64,000 nt of DNA from assembly GCA_965226745.1 (NCBI GenBank), contig CBDDDS010000005.1, positions 850,389-914,388 of the forward strand, in the 5' to 3' direction. Below are positions 2,092-49,116 of this stretch, one piece after another. The notes beneath the pieces are model-generated. The model was not told where the DNA came from. It ran no database searches and saw only the letters and a list, made by a program, of their open reading frames with translations. Positions within the stretch are counted from its first letter, which is position 1; each line of letters opens with the position of its first letter. Both the position numbers and the translations under genes were made by a program. This DNA is from Dehalococcoidia bacterium. GTDB lineage: Bacteria; Chloroflexota; Dehalococcoidia; Lucifugimonadales; SAR202-VII-2.

Positions 2092-2190
2092 TGGCGGGAG
2101 CGGGAGGGAGTCGAACCCACCACAGACTGCGCAGGCAGCCCGCCAGCCGGGTTTGAAGCCCGTGAGGCCCACCGGGACCCATCCGCCCCC
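2092..2190 (-). tRNA. selC: tRNA-Sec (anticodon UCA), CCA encoded
   Basis: 99-nt reverse-complement sequence GGGGGCGGAT...GGGTTCGACTCCCTCCCGCTCCCGCCA. Folds with an 8-bp acceptor stem (one G-U), a 6-bp D stem with a 4-nt loop, the anticodon loop CUUCAAA, a long variable arm, and a 5-bp T stem with loop TTCGACT. This is the bacterial 8/5 tRNA-Sec architecture. Confidence 0.85.
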
Positions 2191-2599: not shown

Positions 2600-2716
2600 C
2601 CTTCCTCCTTGCTGGCTCCGTCCAATCTTCCCAGGCGCCGGCCACTGTTGAGATGCCGGGGGTGGGAAATCGGTGCGGGCGCGTTAGCTCGCATCCCAAT
2701 TGTACGCCCCGGAAGG

Positions 2717-3340: not shown

Positions 3341-3365
3341 GACAAGACGCGGGGGTAGTTGTATG

Positions 3366-4565
3366 TCACCGGGCGAAGGAGGGAGAGGACAGAGCTCTGA
3401 GTCGTGCGATGAGGCCGGGAAGCACGGAGAGGACGTGGTCCACCTCTTCCTCGGTGTTGCCCTTGCCCAGGGTCAAACGCAGGCTGGAGCGGGCCTGATC
3501 GGCGGTGAGACCCAAAGCCAGGAGAACGTGGGAAGGCTCCAAGGATGCACTGGTGCAGGCGCTGCCGCTCGATGCTGCGATTCCTTCCAGGTCAAGACCG
3601 AGCAGCACGGGCTCCGCCTCCACGCCGGCGAAGCTGAAGTTGACGTTGTTGGCGAGCCGCTGCGTGGGATGGCCGTTGAGACGAGCCCCTAGCGCCCGTT
3701 CCTGAATCCCCGCTATAAGCCTGTCCCTGAGGCGCAGAGAGCGCTGCGCGGTTTCTTCCCGGTCTGCTTCGGCCAGCGCCAGCGCCAGCGCTGCTCCAAC
3801 GATGCCAGGCACGTTCTCGGTGCCCGCCCGGCGCTGGCGCTCCTGCCCCCCACCAAGATGCTGAGGGTCGAAGGGCGTTCCCCTCCGGAGATAAAGAATG
3901 CCGACGCCCTTGGGGCCGTAGAACTTGTGGGCGGAAAGGCTGAGAAGGTCTACGCCCAGCCTGTCTACGTTTACGTCCATCAGCCCTGGCGCCTGCACAG
4001 CGTCGGTGTGGACGACAATGCTGCGCCTCAGCTCTTGGGCTTTTTCTCTAACCCGCTGGGCTATGTCGGCCAGCGGCTGCACTACGCCGATCTCGTTGTT
4101 GGCCAGCATCACACTGACAACGATCGTCTGGCCGGTGATGGCCTCCACCAATCCGTCCACGTCCACAAGACCTTGGGAGTCCACCGGCAGATAGGTGATC
4201 TGGAATCCTAGCCCTTCGAGCCAGTGGCAGGCGTGAAGGACAGCGTGATGCTCAATGCTGGTGGTGATGATGTGATTGCCGCTCTGCCTCAGAGCGAGAG
4301 CCGCCCCTCTCAGAGCGGTGTTGTCCGACTCCGTTCCGCCACTGGTGAAGATGATTTCGCTGGGTCTGCAGCCCAGAACCCTCGCCACGCGGTCCCTGGC
4401 GTCGTCCATGGCCATGCGGGACCGCTGTGCCAATGTATAGAGGCTGGACGGGTTGCCGAAACGCTCCGTGAAATATGGCAGCATCGCCTGGAGGACATCG
4501 GGGTCCAACGGCGTCGTTGCAGCATGGTCCAGATAGACCAGCGCTTGGGGCGAAAAGGAAGTCAA
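3366..4565 (-). CDS. cysteine desulfurase (NifS/IscS class V aminotransferase)
   Basis: 399 aa with TTG start after GGAGATGG. Has the PLP-lysine motif [10 protein letters not shown] and the active-site loop SSGSACTS. Confidence 0.9.
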
Positions 4566-4820: not shown

Positions 4821-7016
4821 CTACCGGGGCGCCGCCGCCAACTCCCGTTTCGGCGCCACCGCCGGTTGAACCTCCGACTGGAGGCGCTCCAGCACGTCAA
4901 AGACCACCCCGCAGGATGGGCACAGATATTCGACGAGCAGGAAGTTGGGACTGTTGCCTCCCCAACGCTCAGCCAGCCAGGGGCCTGCCTTCCTCAGTGG
5001 GCTGTGGCGCACCGCGGCAAACCGTCGCGGCTCTTCAGACGCCGAACAGTAGACGTGATGGCACTCGGTGCACCGAACAAATCCGTCGCTGCCGTCCCCA
5101 ACCTGCTCCACGTATTCGATTATCAGACGGACCGGCCGCTCTGCGGCGCCATTGCTCAGCGTTGCCGCAGCGCCGTTGCGGACGACGGCTTCGGATTTTC
5201 GCTTTTCGACAAGGCGCAGGCGCTCCTGCCGCGTGCCCTCAACTTCGACGGCGAGGTCTGCGGTCAGAACGACGCCATAGGCCAGCGTGGCCATTTCGAT
5301 GGTAACGGCTCCCCTGAGGACGTCCTGCCGGACCCGTTCCGGGTCGCGGTGAAAGGGATCGCCAACGCCGCCGCCGCCTGGGGCGTGGTAGATGTAGAGG
5401 TCGCGGCTTTCCAGGAAGCCATCGGACTTGGATGAGAGGTGCTGCAGAGCGCCTCCGAAGCCCTCGTAGCGTTCGGGGATGGACCAGGTGCCCAGGATTC
5501 GCTCTAGGTCGGCGTTTCGCACCACCGACGCCTGAGACCCGGCGCCGGGGTAGCCCCCGCCTATGCCAAGCGCGTTGGACTGGTCGGCCCCCGACGTGTT
5601 CTGGGACTTCCACATGAGCCGTTCGGTGCGGTGTGGGGTGACCGCGGATACGGCGGTAAGACCGCCCCGGAACTTGCCCGGCCCGCCGGAGTCGGGCAGT
5701 TGCTTGCGGTAAAGATAGAGCACCGGCAGCTTCCACTCCTGGTTCTCCACGTCGGCCATGAGGCTGACGGGACAGAGGGCAAAGCCGCCGTGATCGAAAC
5801 CGTCGCCGAAGGTGCGGGCGCCGGCGCCACCGCCACGGTGGTCGGACAGGACGTTGCCGACGTACTTGCCTCGCCTGCCGACGCCGAAAATGTTGACGGC
5901 GTTGATGGAGTTGGCCCAAGAGGGGCACACTAGGTCGCGGTACTTTTCCGAACCCGACATCATCTGGGACATCACATGCATTGATGCGGCGTTGGTCAGC
6001 GATGAACAGACGATGACGCCGACGCTTACCGGCGCGGGAGGCCGGCAGTTCAACACCGACCCTTCGGGAACAACTACGGTGGCAACCCGCTTCACGCTGC
6101 TATTCCAGTCGATCTCGCCGCGGCAAAGGAGGGCATGGATGGGCGCGGTGGTGCCGGCGTTGGTCACGTTCTCGGTGGTGTTGATACAGGCCGCCACCTG
6201 GGGGTCGGTCCCGGTATAGTCGAAGTAGAGGTGGTCCCCCTTCTTTTCCAGCTTCAGGCAGATCCGTACGATGCGGTCTGAGCCAACCCGGTCGCCGTCG
6301 ATGTAGACCTGCGTCGTCCACTCGCCATCCGGCAGTTCCGAAATGCGCTCCCGGAGCTTCTGCTCGGCCCAGTCGATGCTTTGGTAAGCGACGGCGGTCA
6401 CTGTGTCCACGCCGTGCTCATCCAGGACCTCGCGGAGGCGCTTCCTGGCCACGTGAATGGCCCCCACCTGGGCGCGCACGTCCAGGGCGACCATGTCGGG
6501 CAAGCGGGAATTGGTGACGATAGTGCGTTCGACCTCACTGGAGAACTTACCCCGGTCGACGATCTTCAAGAAGTAGCGCGGCGCCTCCTGATACAGGTTG
6601 TCTGCGTTGATGCAGAAAGAGCCTTCGTCCATGCCTGCGACATCGGCGTAGTGCATGACGTTGCCAACCCACATGATGTGCTCACCTTCGTAGAAGAAGG
6701 GGCTCACGACCGCCACGTCGTTTTGGTGACAGGCGCCAAGGAAGGGATCGTTGGTGAGGAAGACGTCGCCGTCGTTGATCTCACTGGCGATGGCCATCAC
6801 GTTTCTGATGATGGTGTCCATCGTTGTAACGTGGATCAGCATATAGGCGCCGGGGCTGATGATCTCGGCGTCTTTGGTGAACAGGCCGGTGCCGAAGTCG
6901 TTGCCCTCCACTACGATGGGAGACACAGACATGGTGCGAATGGCATTGGCCTGTTCGTCGTTGATCTGCCACAGGCGGTGCTTGACAACCTCGAACGTTA
7001 TCGGATCGACTCTCAT
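4821..7016 (-). CDS. hydantoinase B/oxoprolinase-family subunit (acetone/acetophenone-carboxylase alpha-like) with a fused C-terminal Cys4 zinc-ribbon resembling the carboxylase gamma subunit
   Basis: 731 aa. The HyuB-type core ends with the PGGGGVGDP...YGV motif. An extra tail of about 100 aa carries RCTECHH...YLCPSCGVVFDV. The start overlaps the hyuA stop (ATGA). Confidence 0.8.
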   Translation of the reverse strand: MRVDPITFEVVKHRLWQINDEQANAIRTMSVSPIVVEGNDFGTGLFTKDAEIISPGAYMLIHVTTMDTIIRNVMAIASEINDGDVFLTNDPFLGACHQNDVAVVSPFFYEGEHIMWVGNVMHYADVAGMDEGSFCINADNLYQEAPRYFLKIVDRGKFSSEVERTIVTNSRLPDMVALDVRAQVGAIHVARKRLREVLDEHGVDTVTAVAYQSIDWAEQKLRERISELPDGEWTTQVYIDGDRVGSDRIVRICLKLEKKGDHLYFDYTGTDPQVAACINTTENVTNAGTTAPIHALLCRGEIDWNSSVKRVATVVVPEGSVLNCRPPAPVSVGVIVCSSLTNAASMHVMSQMMSGSEKYRDLVCPSWANSINAVNIFGVGRRGKYVGNVLSDHRGGGAGARTFGDGFDHGGFALCPVSLMADVENQEWKLPVLYLYRKQLPDSGGPGKFRGGLTAVSAVTPHRTERLMWKSQNTSGADQSNALGIGGGYPGAGSQASVVRNADLERILGTWSIPERYEGFGGALQHLSSKSDGFLESRDLYIYHAPGGGGVGDPFHRDPERVRQDVLRGAVTIEMATLAYGVVLTADLAVEVEGTRQERLRLVEKRKSEAVVRNGAAATLSNGAAERPVRLIIEYVEQVGDGSDGFVRCTECHHVYCSASEEPRRFAAVRHSPLRKAGPWLAERWGGNSPNFLLVEYLCPSCGVVFDVLERLQSEVQPAVAPKRELAAAPR

Positions 7017-15514: not shown

Positions 15515-16330
15515 ATGCCGGAGTTCACCGGCCTTGAGGTCATCCGCCGGGGAGAGACCGTGCGAGTCAACTGCCCCAGGCTCGATTCCGAGCTGGTCCA
15601 GGAGCTGCTCGGGGTCGGATGCCACTCGGTGTCGTGGGGCGCCGACAGCGTCTCCTTTGTCCTGGGCGCCGAGGATTTGGAGCGGTTTAGGAAGATCTAC
15701 GAAGGCGGCGGTCACGCGGCCATCGACCTGCCGTTTCTCGTCCTGGCATACTACGACTTCATCTCCCCCTTCGCCTACGTCGCCACCGAGCTGGTCAAGC
15801 CCGTGGAGGCCGAGTTCAACGTCCACGTTGAGTGGCGCGCCTTCGAGCTGCGGCCCCGCTGGCGCCAGTATCCGGACGTTACCGCCGACTCGGCGCGCTC
15901 CCAGGCGCGTTGGGCCATGCAGAAAGACGCGGCCCGGCGCTATGGGTTGCCCATCGCCGAGGACCGCCCTCCCTTCCGCCTCCGGACGCGCCCCGCATTG
16001 ATGGCCGCTGAGTACGCCAGGGAACATGGGCGCTTCCGGGAGTTCCAACGGGCCATGTTCAATGCCTTCTACGTCACCCATGAGGACATTCGGAATCTCT
16101 CGGTAATTGCAGAGATCGCCGGGGGCCTTGGCTTGGATGGACAAGCGTTGGCGGCCGCGGTAATGGAGCGCCGCTACGAGGCCCGGATAGAGCAGTGGCG
16201 CCGCGAGGCGCTGGCGGACCTAGTCTTCGGGGTGCCGACATTCAAGATAGGCCCAACGGTCATCTGGGGACGAGAGCCCGTCGAGGACATACGAAAGGCC
16301 CTGGAGGAAGCGGGCGCATCCAGGAGATAG
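15515..16330 (+). CDS. DsbA-like thioredoxin-fold protein (2-hydroxychromene-2-carboxylate isomerase/FrnE-like) with an N-terminal extension
   Basis: 271 aa with ATG after GAGGAG. Has the YYDFISPFAY motif (Ser in place of CxxC, as in HCCA isomerases) and the GVPTF...WG C-terminal motif. Confidence 0.7.
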   Translation: MPEFTGLEVIRRGETVRVNCPRLDSELVQELLGVGCHSVSWGADSVSFVLGAEDLERFRKIYEGGGHAAIDLPFLVLAYYDFISPFAYVATELVKPVEAEFNVHVEWRAFELRPRWRQYPDVTADSARSQARWAMQKDAARRYGLPIAEDRPPFRLRTRPALMAAEYAREHGRFREFQRAMFNAFYVTHEDIRNLSVIAEIAGGLGLDGQALAAAVMERRYEARIEQWRREALADLVFGVPTFKIGPTVIWGREPVEDIRKALEEAGASRR

Positions 16331-16984: not shown

Positions 16985-19891
16985 TTGTTGAACGACGTGC
17001 CCCACCAGACCGAACCCAACGCCAACAACGCCCTGGGAGACCTGCTCCGCGGCATGATGCCCGGCTGCGAGGTCCGCTCCGAGAATACGCAGACCTTCCC
17101 TGACCATCCGGGGCGCCATGCCGACGTGCTGATCACGGCCCCGGGGCGCTCGCCGGTTGCCGTTGAGGCGGAGTATGAGCCGGCCCCCGAGGCGGAAGAG
17201 GACGCCCATGCGCGGCTGGGCCTGACCGTTGCAGGGGCGCTGCGGACCATCGAGGCGGCCATTGCCGTGCGCTACCCGGAGGCAGTGGAAGACGCCTACG
17301 ACGTGCGCCAGGCCCTGGCGGAAGCGCGCCTTTCCTACTGCGTACTCTACGAGGACGGCAGCCGCTTCCCCGAATCGGGGGGGCTGAACGGTTCGGCGAG
17401 CGACCTTGCCGACCTGGTGCGCCTGGTGTCGGTGCCGCAGAAGGCGGTGGACGAGGCGGCCGCGGTGCTCGAACACGGAATCGGGCAGGCGGCAAGCGTA
17501 CTCGATGACCTGGCGAAGCAGCGGCCTGCCATCATCACGGCGATAGCCCGCCTGCTGGGCATGGCCAACGTGCCCCAGACGCGCCGCATGGCCTGCGCCA
17601 TCGTCGCCAACGCCATGGTGTTCCACGAGCGGATTGCGGGGATGCACGACGAGGTCAAGCCGCTGGGGTTGGTGTTCGGCCCCAACGTTGGGAACCCGCA
17701 GGCCGAGGTGGAGAAAGCCTGGTCCGCCATCCTGAAGATCAACTACTGGCCCATATTCGCCATTGCCAAGGACATCTTGGGGCAGTTGCCGCCGGACAGC
17801 GCCGCCCAGGTGCTGCGGGGCCTGAGGGACACCGCTCAGACGGTGAACACCACCGGCGTGGACAATGCCCACAACCTGACCGGGCGCATCTTCCAGCGGC
17901 TGATCGCCGACCGGAAGTACCTGGCGACGTTCTACACCCTACCGGCGTCGGCGGCGCTGCTCGCGCGGCTGGCCGTCGCCAAGATGGACGGCGTGGACTG
18001 GTCGGATGCCGAGGCCATCGGGAAGCTGCGGGTTGCCGACTTCGCCTGCGGCACCGGCGCGTTGCTGTCTGCGGTGTACGAGCAGATTGCGGCCAGGCGC
18101 GAGCGGGCCGGGGGCAATCCGGCCGAGCTGCACCGGGCGATGATGGAGGAAGTGCTCTACGGCTGCGACGTGATGCCGTCGGCCATCCACATCACGGGGT
18201 CGACGCTTTCGGGAGTGGAGCCATCGGTGGGTTTTGAAAACTCCCGCCTGTACACCATGCCCTACGGCCGGCAGCGCGACGGGACGGTGAAGATTGGGTC
18301 GTTGGAGCTGCTGCAATCCTCGACGGCGCTGACGCTGTTCAACACGAGCGATCCGGCGATGCGCACGGGCAGCGCCGGGGAGGAGACGGCGGCGCAGGTC
18401 ACCGCGGAGATGCCCGACGAGGGTTTTGACCTGGTGATCATGAACCCGCCGTTTACCAGGAACGTGACTCGCGAAGGCGCATACGCTGACACAGTAGCCG
18501 CTGCCTTTGCGGCTTTTGGGGCAAGTGACGCAGACCAGAGGCAGATGGCAAAGCGAATGGAGGGCTTGAAGAAGGACACCTGCTATCACGGCAACGCCGG
18601 CATAGCTTCCGCGTTCGCGGCGTTGGCCAACCGAAAGCTCAAGCCCGGCGGCGTTCTTGCCCTGGTGCTGCCTCTGTCAGTGGCTAACGGCCTGTCATGG
18701 CAGGGTTTTCGGGAGATGCTGACGCGTAAGTATACGGATATAACGGTCTTGAGTATCGCAGCAAACGGTCGAGACATGTCCTTCTCGGCCGATACGGGCA
18801 TGGCGGAGTGCCTCGTAATCGCCCGCAAACTCAAGCCGGACGAACCGCCCTACGACCGGACGCACTTCACATCGCTTCGGCACAGACCGCAAGGGTTTGT
18901 TGATGCCGACGCTACCTTCAAAGGCATAGATACCGGTAACCACGTTAGGCGGGTCGAGGATGGGCCATACGGCGGCACGCCCCTGAACATAGGGAGTAGC
19001 CTGGCCGGTGAAACGATAACCGCCCCATGCGACCCAGGCGGGGGAAACTGGGGCGCGGTGCGCTTGGCCGACCATTCTTTGGCTCAAACCGCCTATGCCC
19101 TGTCCCAATCCGGGTTGTGGCTTCCCGGCAGCGGATCCTCAGTTGAGTTGAAGGTGGGGTTGCTAGGTGGCATAGGCAAACTCGGCACTTACGATCTTGA
19201 TATTATTGGACCACTTCCCCGTGGACCTTTCGACAAAGTAGCTCCCAGCCCGACGGCCACATACCCCGCCCTTTGGAACCACGACGCCAAAAATGAGACC
19301 TGGATGGTCTGTAAGCCTGACTCGCAGCTACAGGTTCGGCAGGGGATGGAAGCGAAAGCGGCCACGGTATGGGACACCGCCAGCCGCGCCCACATCAACC
19401 GTGACTTTACGTTCGGTTCCCAACCACTCGCGGTTGCATTCACAGACCAGGAATCAGTGGGTGGTAGGGTGTGGCCCAACGTGACCTTCGGTGACAAGCG
19501 GTTTAACTATGCCTTCACGGTCTGGGGCAACAGCACTCTGGGCTTGTTGTCGTATTGGTGGCACTCCAGCCGTCAGCAATCGAGCAAGGCAAGCATGACT
19601 ATCCGCTCCGCCGAAACCATCCCCGTACTGGACTTCCGCGCCCTCACTGACGAGCAGTTGCTGATGGCTGAGTCGATCTTCAACGAGTTCCGGGACAAGG
19701 AGCTCAAGCCCGCCTACCTCGCGGACGCCGACGCCAACCGGGCGCTGCTGGACCGCCGGGTCATCTGTGACCTGCTGGGGTTCGACGAGGATACTTACCT
19801 GGGCGTGCGCCGGTTGGCGGCCAAGTGGTGCGCCGAACCGTCGGTGCACGGAGGGAAGCCGCGACCGCCGGGCAGCGCGCTGGTCAGCTAG
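16985..19891 (+). CDS. large gamma-class N6-adenine DNA methyltransferase with extra N- and C-terminal domains (possible type IIG/IIL restriction-modification fusion or orphan MTase)
   Basis: 968 aa. Has the AdoMet motif I VADFACGTGALL, the catalytic motif IV DLVIMNPPF, and an FYT-type motif (ATFYTLPASAALLA) upstream. The N-terminal HADVLI-x11-EAEYE is only loosely PD-(D/E)xK-like. The start is uncertain (TTG 16985 or ATG 17054). Confidence 0.8.
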   Translation: MLNDVPHQTEPNANNALGDLLRGMMPGCEVRSENTQTFPDHPGRHADVLITAPGRSPVAVEAEYEPAPEAEEDAHARLGLTVAGALRTIEAAIAVRYPEAVEDAYDVRQALAEARLSYCVLYEDGSRFPESGGLNGSASDLADLVRLVSVPQKAVDEAAAVLEHGIGQAASVLDDLAKQRPAIITAIARLLGMANVPQTRRMACAIVANAMVFHERIAGMHDEVKPLGLVFGPNVGNPQAEVEKAWSAILKINYWPIFAIAKDILGQLPPDSAAQVLRGLRDTAQTVNTTGVDNAHNLTGRIFQRLIADRKYLATFYTLPASAALLARLAVAKMDGVDWSDAEAIGKLRVADFACGTGALLSAVYEQIAARRERAGGNPAELHRAMMEEVLYGCDVMPSAIHITGSTLSGVEPSVGFENSRLYTMPYGRQRDGTVKIGSLELLQSSTALTLFNTSDPAMRTGSAGEETAAQVTAEMPDEGFDLVIMNPPFTRNVTREGAYADTVAAAFAAFGASDADQRQMAKRMEGLKKDTCYHGNAGIASAFAALANRKLKPGGVLALVLPLSVANGLSWQGFREMLTRKYTDITVLSIAANGRDMSFSADTGMAECLVIARKLKPDEPPYDRTHFTSLRHRPQGFVDADATFKGIDTGNHVRRVEDGPYGGTPLNIGSSLAGETITAPCDPGGGNWGAVRLADHSLAQTAYALSQSGLWLPGSGSSVELKVGLLGGIGKLGTYDLDIIGPLPRGPFDKVAPSPTATYPALWNHDAKNETWMVCKPDSQLQVRQGMEAKAATVWDTASRAHINRDFTFGSQPLAVAFTDQESVGGRVWPNVTFGDKRFNYAFTVWGNSTLGLLSYWWHSSRQQSSKASMTIRSAETIPVLDFRALTDEQLLMAESIFNEFRDKELKPAYLADADANRALLDRRVICDLLGFDEDTYLGVRRLAAKWCAEPSVHGGKPRPPGSALVS

Positions 19892-21489: not shown

Positions 21490-22326
21490 CTAGGCGTCGA
21501 TGGTCTGGCCGCCGTCCACGGCCAACGCGTGGCCGGTGACGAACGAGGCCTCGTCTGAGGCTAGGAAAAGCATCCCATAGGCGATCTCCTCAGGGTTCGC
21601 CAAACGCTGGAGACAACGATTGCGATTCGCGGAGGCCTGAAGAGCCGCCTGGCCCTCTTCCGGAGTCCTCCCCTCGGTGAGGTTCCTCAGCAGGCGCGGC
21701 GTCGCTGTGCCGCCGGGGCAGACGCAGTTCACGCGAATGCCCATCGGGCCGTAGTCGATGGCCATGCTCCGGGTCAGCAAAACGACGCCTCCCTTGGATG
21801 CGCTGTAGGCCGCGTAGTCGTTGGTTCCCAGGAGTCCATGGGTCGATGCGGTGTTCACGATGCTCCCCCTGCCCTGCGCCATCAAATGGGGCAAGCCAGC
21901 CTTGGAGCACAGGAACATCGAGGTCAGGTTGATGTTGATGAGGCGCTTCCATTCTGCTTCCGTGAGCTGGTCGACCCGGCCTCTGATGCCGGTCCCGGCG
22001 TTGTTGAGCAGGATGTCCAGACCTCCGAAGCGCTCCAGGGCCAGCGCCATCATCCCCTGGCAGCTTTCGGCGGACGTAACGTCAGCCTGAAAGAAGACTG
22101 CCTCGCCGCCTTCGCTCTGGATGAGCGCATCAATGCGGGGCGCGATGACCTCCACGAGGTCCACGCAGACCACCTTGGCCCCTTCGCGGGCGAACAGTCT
22201 GGCCGCCGCCCGCCCGATGCCGCTGTTGGCCCCGGTGATGACGGCGACTTTTCCCGCCAGCCGGCCCCGGCCGGAGCCCATCATCGGGTGTTCGTCAGTG
22301 CCCGGCGAGGTTGTTGTTGATGTCAT
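21490..22326 (-). CDS. classical short-chain dehydrogenase/reductase, tandem paralog 1 of 6
   Basis: 278 aa with TGANSGIGRA, NNAG and catalytic S...YSASK. Shares the N-terminal DEHPMMGSGRGRL extension with all the paralogs. Confidence 0.9.
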   Translation of the reverse strand: MTSTTTSPGTDEHPMMGSGRGRLAGKVAVITGANSGIGRAAARLFAREGAKVVCVDLVEVIAPRIDALIQSEGGEAVFFQADVTSAESCQGMMALALERFGGLDILLNNAGTGIRGRVDQLTEAEWKRLININLTSMFLCSKAGLPHLMAQGRGSIVNTASTHGLLGTNDYAAYSASKGGVVLLTRSMAIDYGPMGIRVNCVCPGGTATPRLLRNLTEGRTPEEGQAALQASANRNRCLQRLANPEEIAYGMLFLASDEASFVTGHALAVDGGQTIDA

Positions 22327-22359
22327 GGCAACTCCTTTTTCCAGCGTTGCGCCGCTGTC

Positions 22360-23180
22360 CTAAGCGTCGATGGTCTGGCCGCCGTCCACGGCGAGGGCGT
22401 GGCCGGTGACGAACGAGGCCTCGTCCGAGGCCAGGAAGAGCATAGCGTAGGCGATCTCTCCTCCGGGCTTGCTGGTCGTTGAAGGCAACGGTTCATCTTC
22501 GCTGCCTCCTGGATGGGAACCTGCCGCCGCGCCAGGTTTCCCAGCAGCAGGGGCGTCGCAGTCAGGCCGGGACAAACGCAATTCACCCGTATGCCCATCG
22601 GGCCGCAGTCGATGGCCATGCTTCGCGTCAGCATGACCACCCCGGCCTTGGAAGCACAGTAGGCGGGATTGTTCTCCGTCGCCAGCAGGCCGTACGTGGA
22701 CGCGGTGTTGACGATGCTCCCCCTGCCCTGCGCCATCATGTGGGGCAGGGCCGCTTTGGAGCAAAGAAACACCGAGGTCAGGTTGACGTCGATGAGGCGT
22801 TCCCAGTCTCCCAGCGGGAGAACGTCCACCCGCCCGCGAGCCGTTGTCCCGGCGTTGTTCAGGAGAATGTCCAACCCCCCAAAGCGCTCCAGGGCCAGCG
22901 CCATCATCTCCTGGCAGCTTTCGGCGGACGTGACATCCGCCTGGAAGAAGACCGCCTCGCCGCCGTCACCTTGGATAAGCGCGTCGATGCGCGGGGTAAT
23001 GACCTCCGCGAGGTCCACACAAACGACCTTAGCGCCCTCGCGGGCGAATAGCCTGGCCGCTGCCCGACCGATGCCGCTGTTGGCGCCGGTGATGACGGCA
23101 ACCTTGCCCGCCAGCCGTCCCCTCCCGGGGCCCATCATCGGGTGCTCGTTGGCGCCCTGTGCAGCTGTTGCAGAAGTCAT
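22360..23180 (-). pseudogene. SDR tandem paralog 2, apparently frameshifted near 22458
   Basis: The 5' part is in the frame of ORF 22323..23180. The conserved C-terminus (EIAYAMLFLASDEASFVTGHALAVDGGQTIDA) sits in the frame of ORF 22360..22764. An extra dinucleotide in GGAGGAGAGATCGCC, relative to the paralogs, explains the shift. It also has a shorter loop before NRCLQR. Confidence 0.7.
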
Positions 23181-23224
23181 GGCTGGTCCAAGGGTCTAGC
23201 GCAGTCCCCAGAGGGGGTGTTGCG

Positions 23225-23290
23225 CGGCCCCCATCCTAACCTTCCCCCGGGTACGAGGAGAGGGACGGAAGGAGGGGGAATGGACGGGGG
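23225..23290. repeat. dispersed REP-like core (inverted orientation) between SDR paralogs 2 and 3
   Basis: cccccatcctaaccttcccccgggtacgagg matches the reverse complement of the A-unit core. Confidence 0.7.
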
Positions 23291-23335
23291 GATTCTCCCG
23301 TCTCGCGCCTGTAACAACATCCCTGGGAAGTGCAG

Positions 23336-24172
23336 CTAAGCGTCGATGGTCTGGCCGCCGTCCACGGCCAACGCGTGGCCGGTGACGAACGAGGCCTCAT
23401 CGGAGGCCAGGAACAGCATGCCGTAGGCGATCTCCTCTGGGTTGGCGAGGCGCGACAGGCATCGGTTGATGTTGGCCGCGGCCTGAATGGAAGCCTCAGC
23501 GTCCTCGGGGCTTTTGCCCTGCGTCAGATTGCGCAGCAGCCGGGGCGTCGCCGTGGCGCCGGGGCAAACACAGTTCACGCGGATGCCCATGGGCCCGTAG
23601 TCGATAGCCATGCTTCGGGTCAGTAGGACCACGCCACCCTTGGAAGCGCAGTAGGCGGAGTAGCTCTCCGTGGCCAACAGCCCAAAGGTGGACGCTGTGT
23701 TGATGATGCTGCCGCGGCCCTGCGCCATCATGTGAGGCAGCGCCGCCTTGGATCCCAGGAAGACGGAGTTGAGGTTGATGTCCAGGAGGCGTTTCCAGTC
23801 CGTCTCTTCGAGCTGGTCGACTCGGCCTCTGATGCCGGTCCCGGCGTTGTTGACCAGAACGTCGAGACCTCCAAAGCGCTCCAACGCCAGGTTCACCATG
23901 CCCTGGCAGCTCTCGGCGGACGTGACGTCGGCCTGAAAGAAGACGGCCTCGCCGCCGTCGCCCTGGATCAGTGCGTCGATGCGCGGGGTAATGACCTCCG
24001 CCACGTCCACACAAACGACCCTAGCCCCCTCGCGGGAGAAGAGCCTGGCCGCCGCCCGCCCAATGCCGCTGTTGGCGCCGGTGATGACGGCGACCTTGCC
24101 TTCCAGGCGGCCCCTGCCGGGGCCTAGTCCGGGATGCTCGTCGGCGCCGGGTGAAGATGTTGCCGATGTCAT
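23336..24172 (-). CDS. classical SDR, tandem paralog 3
   Basis: Start at MTSATSSPGADEHPGLG (ATG 24172 after GGAGGG). Same motifs as paralog 1. Confidence 0.9.
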   Translation of the reverse strand: MTSATSSPGADEHPGLGPGRGRLEGKVAVITGANSGIGRAAARLFSREGARVVCVDVAEVITPRIDALIQGDGGEAVFFQADVTSAESCQGMVNLALERFGGLDVLVNNAGTGIRGRVDQLEETDWKRLLDINLNSVFLGSKAALPHMMAQGRGSIINTASTFGLLATESYSAYCASKGGVVLLTRSMAIDYGPMGIRVNCVCPGATATPRLLRNLTQGKSPEDAEASIQAAANINRCLSRLANPEEIAYGMLFLASDEASFVTGHALAVDGGQTIDA

Positions 24173-24204
24173 TGAATGCCCTCCAGGGTGCGAATGAAGG
24201 CGTC

Positions 24205-25041
24205 CTACGCCTTGATGGTCTGCCCCCCATCCACGCACAGCGCGTGGCCGGTGACGAACGAAGCCTCGTCGGAAGCTAGAAACACCATGCCGTAGGCGAT
24301 TTCCTCGGGGTTGGCGAGTCGCTTGAGGGCGTGGTTGGTGTCAGCGACGGCGTCGAGGGCGGCCTGACCTTCTTCAGGGCTCTTGCCCTGTGTCAGGCCC
24401 CGTATCAGCCTTGGCGTGGCGGTGCCCCCGGGGCAAAGACAGTTCACCCGGATGCCCATGGGCCCGTAGTCGATGGCCATGCTCCGGGTCAAGAGGATTA
24501 CCGCCCCCTTCGATGCGCAATAAGCAGCGTACCGGCTCACCGCTAACAGCCCGAACGTCGAGGCAGTGTTGATGATGCTGCCTTGGCCCCGTTCCATCAT
24601 GTGGGGCAGCGCGGCCTTCGATCCCAAGAACACGGAGTTGAGGTTGATGTCGAGGAGGCCGCTCCAGTCTGCGAACGTGAGCTCGTCGACCCGGCCAAAC
24701 ACGCCAGTGCCGGCATTGTTCACCAGAACGTCGAGACCTCCAAAGCGCTCTAGCGCCAATGCAACCATGCCCTGGCAGCTCTCAGGGGAGGTGACGTCCG
24801 CCTGGAAAAAGACGGCCTCTCCGCCATCGCTTTCAATCAATGCGTCGATGCGGGGCGTAATGACCTCCGCCACGTCCACGCAAACGACCTTGGCGCCCTC
24901 GCGGGCGAAGAGACGAGCCGCGGCGCGGCCAATGCCGCTGTTGGCGCCAGTGATAACGGCAACCTTACCTTCCAGCCGCCCGCGGCCGGGGCCCATCATG
25001 GAATGTTCGTCAGCGCTTGGCGCGGCCGATGCGGACGTCAT
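24205..25041 (-). CDS. classical SDR, tandem paralog 4
   Basis: 278 aa with the same motifs. Exactly 885 bp from the equivalent point in paralog 5. Confidence 0.9.
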   Translation of the reverse strand: MTSASAAPSADEHSMMGPGRGRLEGKVAVITGANSGIGRAAARLFAREGAKVVCVDVAEVITPRIDALIESDGGEAVFFQADVTSPESCQGMVALALERFGGLDVLVNNAGTGVFGRVDELTFADWSGLLDINLNSVFLGSKAALPHMMERGQGSIINTASTFGLLAVSRYAAYCASKGAVILLTRSMAIDYGPMGIRVNCLCPGGTATPRLIRGLTQGKSPEEGQAALDAVADTNHALKRLANPEEIAYGMVFLASDEASFVTGHALCVDGGQTIKA

Positions 25042-25089
25042 GGCTCCTCCTCGGCTAGCCGCTTCGGGCTATGGCTGGTTTCGAGAATG

Positions 25090-25926
25090 TTAGGCGTCCG
25101 TGGTCTGGCCGCCGTCCACGGCGAGGGCGTGGCCGGTGACGAACGAAGCCTCGTCCGAGGCCAGGAAGAGCATCCCGTAGGCGATCTCCTCCGGCTGCGC
25201 CAATCGTTGGATGGCCCGATTGATGGCGGCGGCGGCGGCCACAGAGGCCTCGGCCTCCGCCGGGCTCTTGCCTTCCGTCAGAATCCTCAATAGCCGGGGC
25301 GTCGCCGTCCCGCCGGGGCAGATGCAGTTGACCCGAATGCCCATCGGCCCGTAGTCGATGGCCATGCTCCGAGTCAGCAGCACGACGCCGCCCTTGGAGG
25401 CGCTGTAGACGGCATAGCTGGCCGTGCCCAACAGACCGAAGGTGGAAGCAGTGTTGACAATGCTCCCCTTACCTTTGGACATCATGTGCGGCAACGCCGC
25501 CTTCGACCCAAGGAACACGCCGGTCAGGTTGAGGTCCACAATCCTCTTCCAGTCCCCTTCTGATAGCTGGTCGACGCGGCCCCACACGCCCGCGCCGGCG
25601 TTGTTGACGAGGATATCCAGGTCTCCGAATCGCTCTAGGGCCAGGTTCACCATGCCCTGGCAGCTCTCGGCAGAGGTAACGTCTCCCAGGAAGAAAGCCG
25701 CCTCGCCCCCCTCACCTTGAATGAGAGCGTCAACGCGGGGCGCGATATCCTCAACAAGGTCAACGCAGACCACTTTGGCGCCCTCTCGGGCGAAGAGACG
25801 GGCCGTAGCGCGGCCGATGCCGCTGTTGGCGCCGGTGACGACGGCAACCTTGCCCTCCAGCCGCCCCCTCCCGGAACCCATCATGGGATGTTCGTCAGCG
25901 CCTGACGAGGCTGCTTGGGACGTCAT
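25090..25926 (-). CDS. classical SDR, tandem paralog 5
   Basis: 278 aa with the same motifs. The 48-nt spacer is homologous to the spacer after paralog 4. Confidence 0.9.
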   Translation of the reverse strand: MTSQAASSGADEHPMMGSGRGRLEGKVAVVTGANSGIGRATARLFAREGAKVVCVDLVEDIAPRVDALIQGEGGEAAFFLGDVTSAESCQGMVNLALERFGDLDILVNNAGAGVWGRVDQLSEGDWKRIVDLNLTGVFLGSKAALPHMMSKGKGSIVNTASTFGLLGTASYAVYSASKGGVVLLTRSMAIDYGPMGIRVNCICPGGTATPRLLRILTEGKSPAEAEASVAAAAAINRAIQRLAQPEEIAYGMLFLASDEASFVTGHALAVDGGQTTDA

Positions 25927-25974
25927 GGCTCCTCCTTGGGTAACCGCTTCGGGCTGTAATTGATTTCGGGGATG

Positions 25975-26793
25975 CTAAGCGTCGATGGTCTGGCCGCCGT
26001 CCACGGCGAGGGCGTGGCCGGTGACGAACGATGCCTCGTCCGACGCCAGGAAGAGCATACCGTAGGCGATCTCCTCCGGGTGCGCCAATCGTTGGATGGC
26101 CCGGTTGATCTTGGCGGCCTCTGCTATGGCAGCCTCGGGGTCGGGCTGCGAGTTGAAGAAGCGGAGCAACCTTGGCGTAGCCGTAGCGCCGGGGCACACG
26201 CAGTTCACCCTGATTCCCATAGGGCCGTAGTCGATGGCCATGCTCCGGGTCAGCAGCACCACGCCTCCCTTCGAAGCACAGTAGGCAGCGTAGTCCTCCG
26301 ACGCCAGCAAACCGAACGTTGAAGCGGTATTGATGATGCTCCCGCGCCCCTTTTCCATCATGTGCGGCAGGGCGGCCTGAGAGCCGTTGAACACGCTGTT
26401 CAGGTTCGTATCGATCACGGAGCCCCATTGCTCGGCGGTTAGCTGGTCCACCCTGCCGCGGATGCCCGTGCCCGCGTTATTCACCAGGATATGCAGATCG
26501 CCGTAGGTGTTCAGCGCCGTGGCCACCATTCGGTCGCAGTCGGCGCGATTGGTCACATTCACGTTGACGAAGGTGCACTCGCCTCCCTGGCTCTTGATGA
26601 GATCGTCGATACGAGGCTGAATGTCCTCCACGAAGTCTACCCCAACGACCTTGGCGCCCTCTCTGGCGAAGAGGTCCGCAGTCGCTCTTCCGATGCCGCT
26701 GTTGGCGCCGGTGACGATGGCGACCTTGCCCTCGAGCCGCCCCCTGCCTGGGCCCAATCCCGGATGCTCTTGCACTGAAGCCTGCGTGGTCAC
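25975..26793 (-). CDS. classical SDR, tandem paralog 6 (most divergent)
   Basis: 272 aa with TGANSGIGRA, NNAG and YCASK. Confidence 0.9.
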   Translation of the reverse strand: MTTQASVQEHPGLGPGRGRLEGKVAIVTGANSGIGRATADLFAREGAKVVGVDFVEDIQPRIDDLIKSQGGECTFVNVNVTNRADCDRMVATALNTYGDLHILVNNAGTGIRGRVDQLTAEQWGSVIDTNLNSVFNGSQAALPHMMEKGRGSIINTASTFGLLASEDYAAYCASKGGVVLLTRSMAIDYGPMGIRVNCVCPGATATPRLLRFFNSQPDPEAAIAEAAKINRAIQRLAHPEEIAYGMLFLASDEASFVTGHALAVDGGQTIDA

Positions 26794-31141: not shown

Positions 31142-31327
31142 CCCGCGAGTCGAACAGCGAGCGGTTGCCCCTATTGGACGCAGCCAAAAACTCCCTCCTG
31201 ACCCTCAGAGTCAAGGTCGTGGATGCCTGAACGCGGCATCTGGTTCGGGTATAGTGATCCCTCCCACCCCCCTGGCGACGCATCCCTTTATATTTGGAGT
31301 GCGCCCGCGTCTGACTGGAGTGCGCGC

Positions 31328-32116
31328 ATGGACCTGCTTCTGACCGACCGCGTCGCCATCGTGACAGGCGGCGCCTCGAACATAGGCCGTCAGGTGGCCC
31401 TCACGCTGGCCGGAGAAGGCGCCAGCGTGGCCATCCTTGACCTGGACGAGGCCGGGGCGCAGCGCGTGGCGCAGGAGGCAAGGACTTCCGGAGGACGGGT
31501 CTCCGTCTACAGAACGGACATAACTGACCCCGCCAACGCCGAGGTTTCCGTCCGCCGGGTCGCCGAGGACCTTGGGAAGGTGGATATCCTGGCCAACGTT
31601 GCTGGGTGGATGTACGACGAGCTGTTCCTGGATGAGACCGCCGAGAAGCAGGAAAAGTTGGTGAACGTCAACCTATGGGGGCCCATGAACATGATCAGGG
31701 CCGCGCTGCCGTACATGGTCGCCAATGAATACGGGCGAGTGGTTTCCGTGGCCTCGGACGCCGGGCGCATGGGAGAATACAAGGAAGCGGTCTACTCGGC
31801 GTGCAAGGCGGGAGTCATAGCCTTGTCGAAGGCGCTGGCGCGGGAGGTGGGACGCTACAACGTCACGCTGAACTGCGTCTGCCCCGGCCTGACGATCCCC
31901 GAGGCGCCCGAGACCATGAGCGCCGACAGTTTCTGGCATGAGAACCTGGACTTCTGGACTGAGGAACGCCAACAGAAAGCCGCCCGGGCCTACCCGCTGC
32001 GTCGCCTTGGCAAACCAGACGACGTGGCCAGCATGGTGGCATGGCTTGCCTCTGACCGGTGCTCCTACGTGACCGGCCAGACGATCAGCGTTAGCGGCGG
32101 CTACACGATGATGTAG
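31328..32116 (+). CDS. short-chain dehydrogenase/reductase (FabG-like)
   Basis: Start at MDLLLTDRVAIVTGGASNIG. Has the catalytic YSACK and ends in GGYTMM. Confidence 0.85.
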   Translation: MDLLLTDRVAIVTGGASNIGRQVALTLAGEGASVAILDLDEAGAQRVAQEARTSGGRVSVYRTDITDPANAEVSVRRVAEDLGKVDILANVAGWMYDELFLDETAEKQEKLVNVNLWGPMNMIRAALPYMVANEYGRVVSVASDAGRMGEYKEAVYSACKAGVIALSKALAREVGRYNVTLNCVCPGLTIPEAPETMSADSFWHENLDFWTEERQQKAARAYPLRRLGKPDDVASMVAWLASDRCSYVTGQTISVSGGYTMM

Positions 32117-32203
32117 GCGCGTTGGTGAATCCCCCTGCCACCGCTGCACATCCATAGACTCAGCGGGGACGGTTCGGGAATGGGTCGGACGCAGAGGAGT
32201 TAT

Positions 32204-33814
32204 ATGCCTTTCAAGCAGCGGCGACTTGCATTTGCTCTCCCGGCGCTATTGGTCGTAGTTGCGGCGTGCTCCAGCGGCGGCGCCCCCACCGAGGCTCCCA
32301 CAGACGCGTCGGCGCCCAGCCCTTCGGCGACGGCAGCGCCTGCCCCCGGCGCCTCGGCGACGGCAACACCGATGCCAGCGCCGGAAGAGCCAACACCTTC
32401 CTCTGCTCCCACACGCGCCGGTGGGACCGACGCCCGCGCCACACCCACCGCTACCCCAGACCAGCAAATTCCGGAACCCCCGGTTTTAGAAGGCCGGGGC
32501 AAGCTGATGCTCACCGCGCTCGAAGAGATCATCTTCAGATCGGAGACCGCTGCGCTGCGGGAGATACGGATGGGCGGGGACCCGTCCTATATCCCGGCGC
32601 TCGTGGAGTTGCTCCGGTTCGGGCCTTTCTTCAGGCAGGAACTGGTCGACAGCCTTCTCTACACGCTGGACACGCTGGCGGCGCCCATTGACGGCAGTGA
32701 GTTCTCCACGAAGTTCACCTGGTCTGACTGGGTCATGTGGCTGGCCAGCTACGACGTGGAGCCCCCGGAGGGCTTCGCGGCGTGGAAGGGGTATCTGTAT
32801 ACCCTAGTAGACCCGTCCTGGGCGGTTTTCTTCTATGCCGACTTGCCGACCCGCATCAACATCGGTGAGGTCGTCTGGGGAGGCGTGTTGAAGGACGGCA
32901 TCCCTGATCTCATAGACCCACCCGTCGTCTCCCCGGACGAGGCGACCTATCTGAACCCCGACGACCGGGTGTTCGGTGTCTCTATCAACGGGGAGCACCG
33001 GGCGTACCCCCACCGCATTATGAATCCCCATGAGATGGCCAACGACGTGGTTGGAGGGGCGCCCATCGCTTTAGCGTACTGAACGCTCTGTGGATCGGGA
33101 ATCGTGTATTCCCGCATAGTCAACGGAGAGGTCACCGAGTTCGGCACATCCGGCTTCCTCTACCGAAGCAACAAGCTGATGTACGACCGGGCCACCAATA
33201 CGCTATGGCGCCAGTTCATAGGCGAACCGGTGGTTGGCGAGCTGGCCCACAGCGGCATCGAGCTTGAGACGTTCCCCGTGGTCGTCACCACCTGGCAAGA
33301 GTGGCTCGCCGAGCATCCGGACACAACAGTCCTAGCAATAGAAACGGGTGTCTACAGCCCGGAAAGATACCTCCCGGAATCGAACTCGGGATCCATCTAT
33401 CACCTCTATCGAACGTCGCCGGGGACCATGTTCCCCGTGCCGCTGGAGAGTGACCAACTCATCACCAAGGCGCAAGTCTTGGGCCTTCGGTTCGGCGGAG
33501 AAGCAAGGGCATACGCCCTGGACCGCCTGGCGGAGGCCCCTGTGGTCAACGACACCCTCGGCGGAACGGACTTCGCCATCGTCACGGACTCGGAAGCCCG
33601 GGCCGCTCGCGCCTACGAGCGCGGGGCGCGGACCTTCTCGTTAGGAGAGAACGGCGCCGTGGTGGACGAGAGCGGGAACAGGTGGGCCGCCGGAGAAGAG
33701 GCCCTGGTGCAGGAAGACGAGCCAACTCAGCGGTTGCCCCGGCTACAGGCCCGCAACGCCTACTGGTTCGGATGGTTCTCCAACTATCCCGACACTTCCG
33801 TCTACGAGGGCTAG
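32204..33814 (+). CDS. DUF3179 family lipoprotein, candidate selenoprotein (in-frame UGA at 33080-33082 read as Sec)
   Basis: ORFs 32180..33082 and 33104..33814 are in the same frame, separated only by TGA. The read-through gives PIALAY-U-TLCGSGIVY...FGTSGFLYRSNKLMYDRATNTLW, which matches the DUF3179 signature TYCPLCGSG...SGLLY.SNLVMYDR.T.SLW with U at the first Cys. ATG 32204 follows GAGGAG. Signal peptide with lipobox VAAC. Confidence 0.7.
33096..33114 (+). promoter_or_regulatory. SECIS-like hairpin downstream of the UGA
   Basis: CGGGAAT-CGTGT-ATTCCCG is a perfect 7-bp stem. It starts 14 nt after the UGA, with the apical loop 21 nt after it and a G in the loop. Confidence 0.55.
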
Positions 33815-46623: not shown

Positions 46624-49116
46624 GTGACCACCAGAGAACTGAAACGCGTCACGCTGCCGGTGGAGGGGATGACCTGCGCCTCCTGCGTCCACACAGTCGA
46701 ACAGGCGCTCAAGAGCGTGCCCGGAGTCGGCGAGGCGACGGTCAACCTAGCCACGGAGCAGGCAAGCGTAGCCTACGACGAGGGCGAGGCCACGGTTGAG
46801 GCAATGGCCAAGGCCGTGGCCGATACCGGGTATCGGGTGACGATGTTCAAGCTGGACCTGATCATTGGAGGTATGACCTGCGCCGCCTGTGTGAGCACCG
46901 TCGAGGGCGCTCTGCGAGGGGCGCCGGGTGTTAGCGCGGCCAACGTCAACCTCGCCACCGAGCAGGCCCGCGTGGAGTACCTTCCCACGTCGGTAACCCT
47001 GCAGGACCTCAGAGATGCCGTGTCGGCGGCGGGCTATTCGGTGGAAGGCATTGCCGGGGAGGACACCGGGACCAAGGACGAGGAGCGGCTGGCGCGGACC
47101 CGCGAGATCCGAATCCTGCGGCGCAAGGTCATCGTCTCAGCGACCATGGCGGCCCTGATATTCGTGGGCAGCATGGAGGGCCTGTTCCCCTGGGCGCCGT
47201 CCTTCTGGCAGAACTGGTATGTGCTCTGGGCCCTAGCGACGCCGGTGCAGTTCTGGGCCGGTTGGCACTTCTACACAACGGCTTGGGCCGCCGGCCGGCA
47301 CCTGTCCGCCAACATGAACACCCTCATCGCCGTGGGCACAAGCACGGCCTACGGCTACAGCGCCGCCGCCACTCTGTTTGCCGGCTTCTTCGAGTCGGCC
47401 GGGCTTGTGACCAAGGTCTACTTCGACACTGCCGCGATGATTGTCACCCTCATCCTGCTAGGGCGGTTCCTTGAGGCCCGGGCCAAGGGCCAGACCTCCG
47501 AGGCGATTCGCAGGCTCCTGCGCCTCCAGCCCCCAACCGCCCATCTCGTCCGCGATGGCGAACTGATCGAGGTGGCAGTGGAGGACCTTCAGGTGGGCGA
47601 CGTGGTCTTGGTCCGCCCCGGCGAGCGGCTGCCGGTCGACGGGACGGTCGTTCAGGGGACGTCCAGCGTAGACGAGTCGATGCTGACCGGCGAGAGCATT
47701 CCATCGGAGAAGCAGGTGGGTGCCCCGGTCTTCGGGGCCACGGTGAACAGGCTGGGCAGCTTCCATCTCCGGGCCACCAAGGTTGGGAAAGACACAGTCC
47801 TCGCTCAGATCATCCGGCTTGTGCAAGAAGCCCAAGGTTCCAAGGCGCCCATCCAGCGCCTAGCAGACGTGGTGGCAAGCTACTTCACGCCCGCGGTTAT
47901 CGTGGTTGCGCTGGCCACTTTCACGCTGTGGATGATCATCGGGCCCTCGCCCGCCCTGACGTTTGCGTTGTTGAATATGGTGGCAGTCCTCATCATCGCC
48001 TGCCCGTGCGCCCTTGGGTTGGCGACGCCAACAGCCATAATCGTCGCCGCCGGCAAGGGCGCGGAACACGGCATCCTCATTCGCAGCGCCGAGGCGCTGG
48101 AGACGGCCCACAAGGTCACGGCCGTGGTGCTGGACAAGACCGGCACGCTCACAACCGGGATGCCTGTAGTCACCGACGTCATAGCGCCAGGCGGGCGGGG
48201 AGACATGGTCCTAGCGCTGGCTGCGTCCGCCGAACAAGGTTCCGAGCATCCTCTGGGCGAAGCCATCGCCAGGGCGGCGGAGGACCGCGGGCTCTCTCTA
48301 GAGCCCACCTCAGCATTCAGGGCCATCCCCGGCTTCGGCATAGAGGCGACGGTCGGCGGGCGGCAGCTTCTCCTAGGCAACGAGGCATTGATGTCCGAGC
48401 GGAGGCTCGGACTGAGCGGCCTGGCCTCGGACGCGGCCCGACTGGCCGAGGAAGGCAAGACGCCCATGTTCGTGGCCCTGAACGGGCAGATTGAGGGGGT
48501 CATTGCCGTGGCAGACGCGTTGAAACCGGAGTCCCAGGAGGCCGTCGCCCGGCTTCACAGCCTCGGATTGGAAGTTGTGATGCTCACAGGCGACCTGCCG
48601 GCTACAGCCAACGCCATCGCCAGGCAGCTTGACATCAAGCGCGTGCTGGCTCAGGTCCTTCCCCAGGACAAGGCCGCCCAGGTCAAGCAGCTCCAGGAAG
48701 AGGGGCGCGTGGTGGCCATGGTGGGCGACGGCATCAACGACGCCCCCGCCCTGGCGCAGGCCAACGTGGGCATCGCCATGGGTACGGGAACGGACATCGC
48801 CATGGAGGCCGCCGACATTACGCTCATGCGGGGGGACCTGCGCGGGGTGGGAGGGGCCATCGCTCTGTCCCGCCAGACCATCCGCACGATCAAGCAGAAC
48901 CTGTTCTGGGCCTTCTTCTACAACACGGCGCTCATTCCCATCGCGGCGGGCGCGCTGTACCCGGTGGCCGTTACCTGGGGCATACCAGGTTTCCTGGAGC
49001 CGGTTCTGGGAGAAAGCGGCTTCCTGAACCCTGTCCTAGCGGCGGCAGCCATGGCCATCAGTTCGGTGACTGTTGTATCGAACTCGCTGAGGTTGCGGCG
49101 GTTCCGGGGCGCGTGA
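46624..49116 (+). CDS. copA: copper-translocating P1B-type ATPase
   Basis: 830 aa with two HMA domains (GMTCASC, GMTCAAC), a CPC motif (ACPCALG), DKTGTLT and GDGINDAP. Confidence 0.95.

Follow-up and report, generated by a model that had tools for sequence, protein, structure and literature searches.

Does the TGA at 33080-33082 end a gene, or does it encode selenocysteine (Sec)? The question arises in a 64,000-nucleotide stretch of a Dehalococcoidia bacterium genome (contig CBDDDS010000005.1; the whole stretch is hereafter the window), in which a mechanical list of open reading frames (ORFs) gives two entries, 32180/32204..33082 and 33104..33814, that lie in the same frame and are kept apart by nothing but this TGA. 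An earlier note, made from the letters of this DNA, had joined these two ORFs into a candidate selenoprotein of the DUF3179 family. We observed that 32204-33814 on the plus strand is indeed one frame of 537 codons whose sole internal stop is this TGA. We conclude, with a probability of roughly 0.9, that it is a genuine Sec-decoded DUF3179 gene, in which the UGA at codon 293 is read as selenocysteine.

The complete selenoprotein coding sequence (32204..33814, plus strand) is predicted to comprise 536 residues, with Sec as residue 293, followed by a TAG stop. The start at 32204 is preferred, with GAGGAG at 32194-32199; an in-frame ATG at 32180 is the alternative. The G+C content at third codon positions (GC3) of the two halves in this frame is 0.76 and 0.79, as in real genes, in a window of 64% G+C. 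In a screen of the whole window, no in-frame TGA other than that at 33080 was flanked by coding signal both before and after it. TGA is also the ordinary stop of many genes of the window and, therefore, a genome-wide reassignment of the code is not at work here.

Read-through of the TGA gives the junction peptide ...VVGGAPIALAY-U-TLCGSGIVYS.... When the TGA was read as Cys, the protein matched the Pfam family PF11376 (DUF3179) over the full length of the profile (1-292 of 292; 261.5 bits against a gathering cutoff of 27, E = 1.3e-77), and this match spans the TGA. The UGA codon (33080..33082, plus strand) is the first position of the motif U-T-L-C, and the TGT codon for Cys296 (33089..33091, plus strand), which is invariant among close homologs (C200 of alignment A2), is the second. 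In the alignments of close homologs (A2/A3), at least 90% of the sequences have Cys where the window has UGA, and the close full-length Cys homologs have AYCTLCG[AS]G where the window has AY-UGA-TLCGSG. The family signature given in the earlier note, TYCPLCGSG, was thus only approximate, though the read-through motif does align to that of the Cys homologs.

The conserved cysteine was also observed in a wider sample. A library of 50%-identity representatives contained 8,785 family members at E <= 1e-3; we aligned the best 150 matches, of which 142 cover the motif. The first Cys, at the Sec position, is present in 138 of these 142 diverse representatives (97%), which agrees with the earlier proposal that the UGA replaces a conserved Cys. 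The second Cys is present in 129 (91%) and is replaced by Ser or Thr in 9. Of the two positions, then, the one occupied by Sec is the more strongly conserved in this alignment. Three residues of an upstream HE..ND motif, His59, Glu60 and Asp64 (query numbering), are conserved in 134-141 of the 142.

The public gene calls divide the locus differently, into an N-terminal protein that ends at 33082 and a separate 236-residue protein that starts from the GTG at 33104. Current calls do contain such proteins: besides the full-length Cys forms, the four closest database proteins (P0001, P0002, P0008 and P0009) are 236-residue fragments that correspond exactly to the ORF downstream of the TGA, each with a separate upstream half. 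On the contigs of these fragments, DUF3179 is likewise split into two ORFs with 21 nt between them; the gene neighbourhood matches, and the codon in question is again TGA. Two separate genes are nonetheless extremely improbable. The single Pfam model runs continuously over the junction, the Cys-form homologs are single polypeptides, and the 21-nt 'spacer' codes in frame for the conserved TLCGSGI. Moreover, the GTG at 33104 sits in the loop of the hairpin described below, and no ribosome-binding site was seen in the preceding 21 nt.

We then consider the codon in relatives. A scan with one genome per GTDB species yielded the 80 nearest loci, all from Dehalococcoidia/Chloroflexota metagenome-assembled genomes; one of these is labelled SAR202-VII-2, and one is a same-species chromosome (OZ253584.1) that is 98% identical. 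TGA stands at this codon in 78 of the 80 loci (76 genomes) and TGC in the other two (L082 and L085), which align codon for codon with the TGA forms. Five metagenome loci (L001-L005) also have TGA, and the sequenced Cys homologs P0004, P0006, P0007 and P0010 have TGC. Both UGA-containing and Cys-containing orthologs, for which the earlier note had proposed to look, are thus present, with the TGA form by far the more frequent.

Compared with relatives of about 75% protein identity, synonymous divergence (pS) was 0.6-0.7, near saturation, and the ratio of nonsynonymous to synonymous substitution (dN/dS) was 0.04-0.17 for the part before the TGA and 0.12-0.14 for the part after it. Comparisons with more distant relatives gave dN/dS of 0.05-0.26 for the two DUF3179 segments. 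By these rates, both halves of the gene are under purifying selection. Low dN/dS on both sides of the TGA, together with near-saturated synonymous sites, effectively excludes a pseudogene, a sequencing error or two unrelated genes.

These data also bear on the possibility that the TGA is a real stop, either in a pseudogene or as a sequencing or assembly error for TGC or TGT. The two ORFs given by public gene callers and the TGG found in one relative (L006) are in line with such a stop. We consider it extremely improbable, because the same TGA recurs at 78 loci from independent species-level genomes and on 5 metagenome contigs, both halves are under strong purifying selection, and a conserved hairpin specific to the TGA forms lies downstream of the codon. 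A base-calling artefact shared across projects and platforms is implausible. The gene has no other disruptions, and the relatives did not show the independent disruptions by which the earlier note would have recognized a pseudogene.

Several individual loci deserve mention. Two genomes carry two TGA copies each: L007 and L080 in OZ253584.1, the same-species relative of the window, and L046 and L076 in CBDFJU01. The TGA-containing paralogs within each of these genomes are about 57% identical to each other; the Sec form has therefore been duplicated and maintained. In the metagenome relative L006 (65% identical), the Sec codon is TGG (Trp) and a 6-bp version of the hairpin is kept (6571-6616), which points to Sec having been lost recently or to an error in the base call. 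Two TGA forms deviate from the rest. L029 (3214-3261) keeps the stem with another loop (GGAAU-ACACG-AUUCC, peptide GIHDS) and has Asn in place of the Tyr before Sec, and L084 (3214-3261) has the altered motif U-T-L-C-F-S-G. These two may be natural variants of the selenocysteine insertion sequence (SECIS) or of the active site, or decaying copies.

Decoding of UGA as Sec in bacteria is directed by a SECIS hairpin in the mRNA, and the earlier note had pointed to a perfect 7-bp hairpin shortly after the UGA. This hairpin, CGGGAAT-CGTGT-ATTCCCG, is found at 33096..33114 on the plus strand, where 33096-33102 pairs with 33108-33114 around the loop CGUGU (33103-33107). Its first base is the 14th nucleotide past the UGA (a 13-nt gap), so that it spans +14 to +32 and overlaps the codons for S-G-I-V-Y-S-R. 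We evaluated it by folding, conservation and covariation. A perfect 7-bp hairpin starting 9-21 nt downstream follows 1.8% of the TGA trinucleotides of the window by chance. The hairpin of a single sequence is on its own only suggestive, and it is the comparative data that decide.

In an alignment (A1) of 78 distinct TGA-form sequences, the core GGAAU-CGUGU-AUUCC hardly varies. Within the hairpin, the Gly, Ile, Val, Tyr and Ser codons each have a third position that is fixed in at least 75 of the 78, and some of these fixed codons end in A/U, though the genome has a GC3 of about 0.8. The third positions of the Thr, Leu and Gly codons just upstream of the hairpin, on the other hand, vary freely. 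In the 11 codons that follow the TGA, pS drops to 0.11 from 0.6-0.7 elsewhere. At the pair that closes the core (18-34), 44 sequences have U-A, 24 have C-G and 3 have G-C; the 5' base of this pair falls on a third codon position with four-fold degeneracy. One sequence (L071) has a compensatory double change within the core (GGCAU/AUGCC). The covariation score was 0.139 against 0.069 in shuffles (none of 500 reached 0.139), and slid controls gave at most 0.065. The two TGC forms, L082 and L085, encode G-I-A-Y-S through GGC AUC GCA UAC AGC and have no such hairpin. The hairpin is therefore a property of the TGA forms, in which it also fixes the peptide G-I-V-Y-S. We thus find the hairpin where the earlier note had placed it and, in addition, conserved, covarying and missing from the Cys forms.

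Some observations on the hairpin speak against its role as a SECIS element. The 60-nt fold of the window sequence is unexceptional (z = -1.64), and most of the sequences, taken singly, have an ordinary folding energy (z from -0.5 to -3). The covariation comes mainly from one pair and may partly track the phylogeny of subfamilies. A scan of the SECIS region with Rfam at permissive thresholds matched no SECIS family; we regard this null as uninformative, since the SECIS models in Rfam are tailored to other genes.

In bacteria, SECIS elements such as that of E. coli fdhF form a stem-loop inside the reading frame, a short way past the UGA, and their apical loop contains guanosines. The hairpin of the window resembles the fdhF element and those predicted in the Olavius symbiont metagenome (PMC1976440) in being a stem-loop within the coding sequence soon after the UGA, with guanosines in its loop. 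It differs from them in being short, with an invariant 5-bp core extended by 1-4 variable pairs, a 5-nt loop CGUGU and a sequence of its own.

A tRNA-Sec gene (selC), which the earlier note had reported from the same window, was confirmed at 2092..2190 on the minus strand by ARAGORN (anticodon TCA) and by a full-length Rfam match (RF01852, model 1-91 of 91, 60.5 bits against a gathering score of 47). The literature credits Chloroflexi with Sec decoding and with a small number of selenoproteins (PMC1794560). Weighing against Sec decoding, selA, selB and selD were not found in the part of the 3.33-Mb contig (ENA ctg125183) that was scanned, namely the 64-kb window and the 8 kb that adjoin it on the left.

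The UGA could also be read through by other means, such as a near-cognate Trp-tRNA or Cys-tRNA or a suppressor, with Trp or Cys placed at residue 293. The lack of machinery genes in the region scanned would fit such a reading, and so would the TGG of L006, in which most of the hairpin is kept. We nevertheless consider it very unlikely. The tRNA-Sec gene is in the window, the conserved downstream hairpin is a hallmark of SelB-dependent decoding, and Trp at a position where Cys is 97% conserved would hardly be functional. L006 itself is a single contig whose name, 'ctg350188_2x_l', we read as low coverage, so that an error or a recent loss is likely.

We noted the following around the tRNA-Sec gene. 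Adjoining it on the minus strand (2270-4565) are a thioredoxin gene (2270-2599), a gene for a 207-residue protein that has no Pfam or NCBIfam match (2717-3340) and a gene for a NifS-type cysteine desulfurase (3366-4565), which matched TIGR03402 at 514.8 bits, just below the cutoff of 530.75. From its place beside selC, this desulfurase could mobilise selenium from selenocysteine. A Pfam match to 'SelA' beside the DUF3179 gene in three relatives was set aside; the one scanned, L060, is DgaE-like.

We now turn to the architecture of the protein. Its N-terminus, MPFKQRRLAFALPALLVVVAAC, reads as a signal peptide ending in the lipobox V-A-A-C22 (feature MPFKQRRLAFALPALLVVVAA-C22; 32204..32269, plus strand), and V-A-A-C fits, by pattern matching only, the lipobox consensus [LVI][ASTVI][GAS]C. 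Conservation of the corresponding Cys (C26 of P0006, in '...VAACGS') among homologs is 90% or more. The mature protein would begin with Cys22, which would carry the lipid. Twin-arginine export, for which 'QRRLAF' had been a candidate signal, was rejected, as the N-termini of the homologs have no conserved RR motif and conserve the lipobox instead.

The signal peptide is followed by a low-complexity linker rich in Ala, Pro, Thr and Ser (residues 23-95; 32270..32488, plus strand), an alpha-helical N-terminal domain (residues 96-229; 32489..32890, plus strand) and the mostly beta DUF3179 domain (residues 230-531; 32891..33796, plus strand). For the structure we used an AlphaFold2 model of P0006, a Cys homolog that is 57% identical to the protein of the window. 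This model (mean predicted local distance difference test score, pLDDT, 88.5; predicted template modelling score, pTM, 0.85) consists of a helical domain followed by a mostly beta DUF3179 domain. The counterpart of the linker is predicted to be disordered (pLDDT <50), and the helices lie at residues 60-164 of P0006 (pLDDT 80-97). No Pfam match was obtained outside residues 230-531, the helical domain included, and an NCBIfam scan of the read-through protein matched no family. The N-terminal domain has a dN/dS of 0.10-0.17 against L001/L003. Within the DUF3179 domain we found an internal repeat, G..GE.RAY...ND.LGG (BLASTP E = 6e-7; 31% identity over 45 ungapped residues), with copies at 32960-33079 and 33470-33600 of the window; UxxC follows only the first copy. 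The repeat suggests that the domain arose by duplication.

How might the protein be made, and what might it do? Under the mechanism established for bacteria, in which SelB-GTP brings Sec-tRNA(Sec) to an mRNA hairpin and Sec is delivered to the UGA, this complex would bind the hairpin at 33096-33114 on the translating mRNA, and Sec would be inserted at codon 293. The precursor would then be exported unfolded, cleaved and lipidated at Cys22, and the helical and DUF3179 domains would be displayed on the outer face of the membrane behind the flexible Ala/Pro/Thr linker. Sec293 would act as the reactive nucleophile of a U-x-x-C redox centre, cycling through a selenenylsulfide with Cys296. That the protein is an extracytoplasmic selenol/thiol oxidoreductase working through a U293-C296 selenenylsulfide is a proposal drawn from sequence, to which we give about even odds.

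A different use of the same motif has to be weighed, in which the protein is a selenoprotein and U-x-x-C is a metal or chalcogen site (for example for Cu(I), Hg(II), Zn, or as a carrier of selenide or sulfide) of an extracytoplasmic binder or chaperone. CxxC and UxxC do bind soft metals in catalogued selenoproteins (heavy-metal-associated (HMA)-type UxxU, MerT/MerP-like proteins and P-type ATPases), the conserved His59, Glu60 and Asp64 just upstream of the motif could complete such a site, and the extracytoplasmic location would suit it. A two-thiolate site, on the other hand, should not tolerate the replacement of the second Cys by Ser or Thr that is seen with the first kept in 9 of the 142 representatives. 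Furthermore, no gene for metal transport or resistance is found among the conserved neighbours; a CopA gene lies 13 kb away and is unlinked in relatives. The 97% conservation of the first position, and 91% of the second with Ser/Thr as replacements, therefore favour a redox nucleophile with a dispensable resolving residue, and we rate the metal or chalcogen site, the main alternative, as unlikely.

The proposed oxidoreductase also has points against it. The motif and its pattern of conservation are the whole of the case for a redox function. No thioredoxin-type match was found in Pfam or NCBIfam, and the Foldseek list for the P0006 model contains no thioredoxin-fold match. A sequence search of the PDB with the family profile returned only noise (E >= 0.3), and Foldseek of the P0006 model against the PDB gave nothing at E <= 1e-3. 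A survey of the neighbourhoods of the 80 loci revealed no conserved thiol-redox or metal partner nearby.

Weak Foldseek matches to Rieske, NirD, fascin and OspA structures were rejected as noise. For a Rieske/NirD-like fold, E was 0.27-0.97, the probability at most 0.16 and the template modelling (TM) score about 0.1, and the Rieske ligand pattern CxH...CxxH is absent from the sequence.

The neighbours at the 80 loci encode short-chain dehydrogenases (SDRs), cupins, acyl-CoA dehydrogenases, CoA ligases, HbpS-like proteins, NHL propellers, DUF1800 proteins, luciferase-like proteins and others. These neighbourhoods are catabolic and are conserved only inside sub-clades. In one large sub-clade (32 loci, a subset of L012-L086; e.g. 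L017, 1178-2353), the end of an acyl-CoA dehydrogenase gene overlaps the start of the Sec-DUF3179 gene by 4 nt; the pair is preceded by a phenylacetate-CoA-ligase-like gene, and HbpS-like, NHL-repeat propeller and DUF1800 genes follow. This arrangement looks like an operon, though the link was not seen in the other clades.

The earlier note had left it open whether Sec forms of DUF3179 were catalogued. They have been since 2007, and the gene of the window is a further member. An entry 'DUF3179 domain-containing protein, pfam11376, UxxC/T' stands in the table of prokaryotic selenoprotein families of Zhang et al. 2022 (PMC9312934). A 2026 review (PMC13188914) places Sec-DUF3179 under 'Predicted with high confidence' and not among the verified families, which tempers our reading. 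Both reviews credit Zhang and Gladyshev 2007, on the Olavius symbiont metagenome (PMC1976440), whose new families include OS_HP1 and OS_HP2. In the 2008 paper on the Global Ocean Sampling (GOS) data (PMC2398784), OS_HP2 is given as pfam07610, and OS_HP1 as a UxxC family with no Pfam model, represented by 69 Cys homologs and a single Sec sequence. Elimination among the families in these tables makes OS_HP1 most likely today's DUF3179, a correspondence that the papers do not state.

The gene of the window shares with the catalogued Sec-DUF3179 proteins the Pfam family, the position of Sec, the motif U-x-x-C/T (U293-T-L-C296 in the window) and a predicted SECIS element just downstream. It differs in its host: the original members were three genes of the delta-1 deltaproteobacterial symbiont of Olavius, whereas the host of the window is a member of the Dehalococcoidia (SAR202-related). 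The frequency of the Sec form differs too. It was rare in the GOS survey, whereas among the relatives of the window it is the rule (78 of 80 loci).

Two further groups of proteins invite comparison. The Cys-DUF3179 lipoproteins of Dehalococcoidia (for example P0006, P0007, P0010 and loci L082 and L085) have the same layout of lipobox, linker, helical domain and DUF3179 domain and are 55-60% identical; they differ in having TGC for TGA, followed mostly by the peptide G-I-A-Y-S, in codons that form no hairpin. The exported thioredoxin-fold UxxC selenoproteins (DsbA-like, DsbG-like, and the Rcas_1661 family NF041057 (seleno)lipoprotein) are likewise extracytoplasmic or lipoproteins, some of them in Chloroflexota. 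By analogy, selenenylsulfide exchange chemistry would likely be common to these and to DUF3179. DUF3179 does not belong to their family, and its model shows a helical domain followed by a beta-rich repeat domain, unlike the thioredoxin fold.

Elsewhere in the window we made the following observations. Six SDR (adh_short) paralogs stand in tandem at 21490-26793 on the minus strand, and a seventh SDR gene (31223-32116, plus strand) lies directly upstream of the DUF3179 gene, a striking local expansion of paralogs. The product of the CopA gene mentioned above (46624-49116, plus strand) is a copper-exporting P-type ATPase of the CopA type that bears two heavy-metal-associated domains at its N-terminus. 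An ORF of 968 residues (16985-19891, plus strand) has a weak match to an Eco57I-type restriction-modification methylase (E = 4e-7) and is flanked by short ORFs of lower coding quality; this region may be a mobile or defence island. We also considered a DsbA-like ORF (15515-16330, plus strand) as a second selenoprotein and rejected it, as it has neither a CxxC nor an in-frame TGA. It is of the 2-hydroxychromene-2-carboxylate (HCCA) isomerase type, with YYDFISPFAY at the place of CxxC, and has a weak match to the (seleno)lipoprotein NCBIfam model.

The finding is incremental and would not surprise selenoprotein specialists. What is new here is the host lineage, together with the predominance of the Sec form in a large marine clade of Chloroflexota. 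Every public gene call set that we inspected breaks the gene and its orthologs, which are found in at least 76 Dehalococcoidia genomes, into two hypothetical ORFs. As no NCBIfam model matches the protein, automated annotation has nothing with which to rescue the read-through; correct annotation would restore an exported selenoprotein of about 535 residues to these genomes. The gene is also a useful data point on the use of selenium outside the classical anaerobes. For the family as a whole (8,785 representatives at 50% identity), the Sec/Cys pair marks residue 293 as the functional centre and thereby as a target for biochemistry. Tentatively, and with more doubt than confidence, we suggest that Sec-DUF3179 may be an extracytoplasmic selenoenzyme that is core to marine Dehalococcoidia, SAR202 included, throughout the clade, with a fold that has no solved analogue and a chemistry that has not been described for selenoproteins. 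If this is true, it would mean an unrecognised dependence on selenium in a dominant bacterial lineage of the deep ocean.

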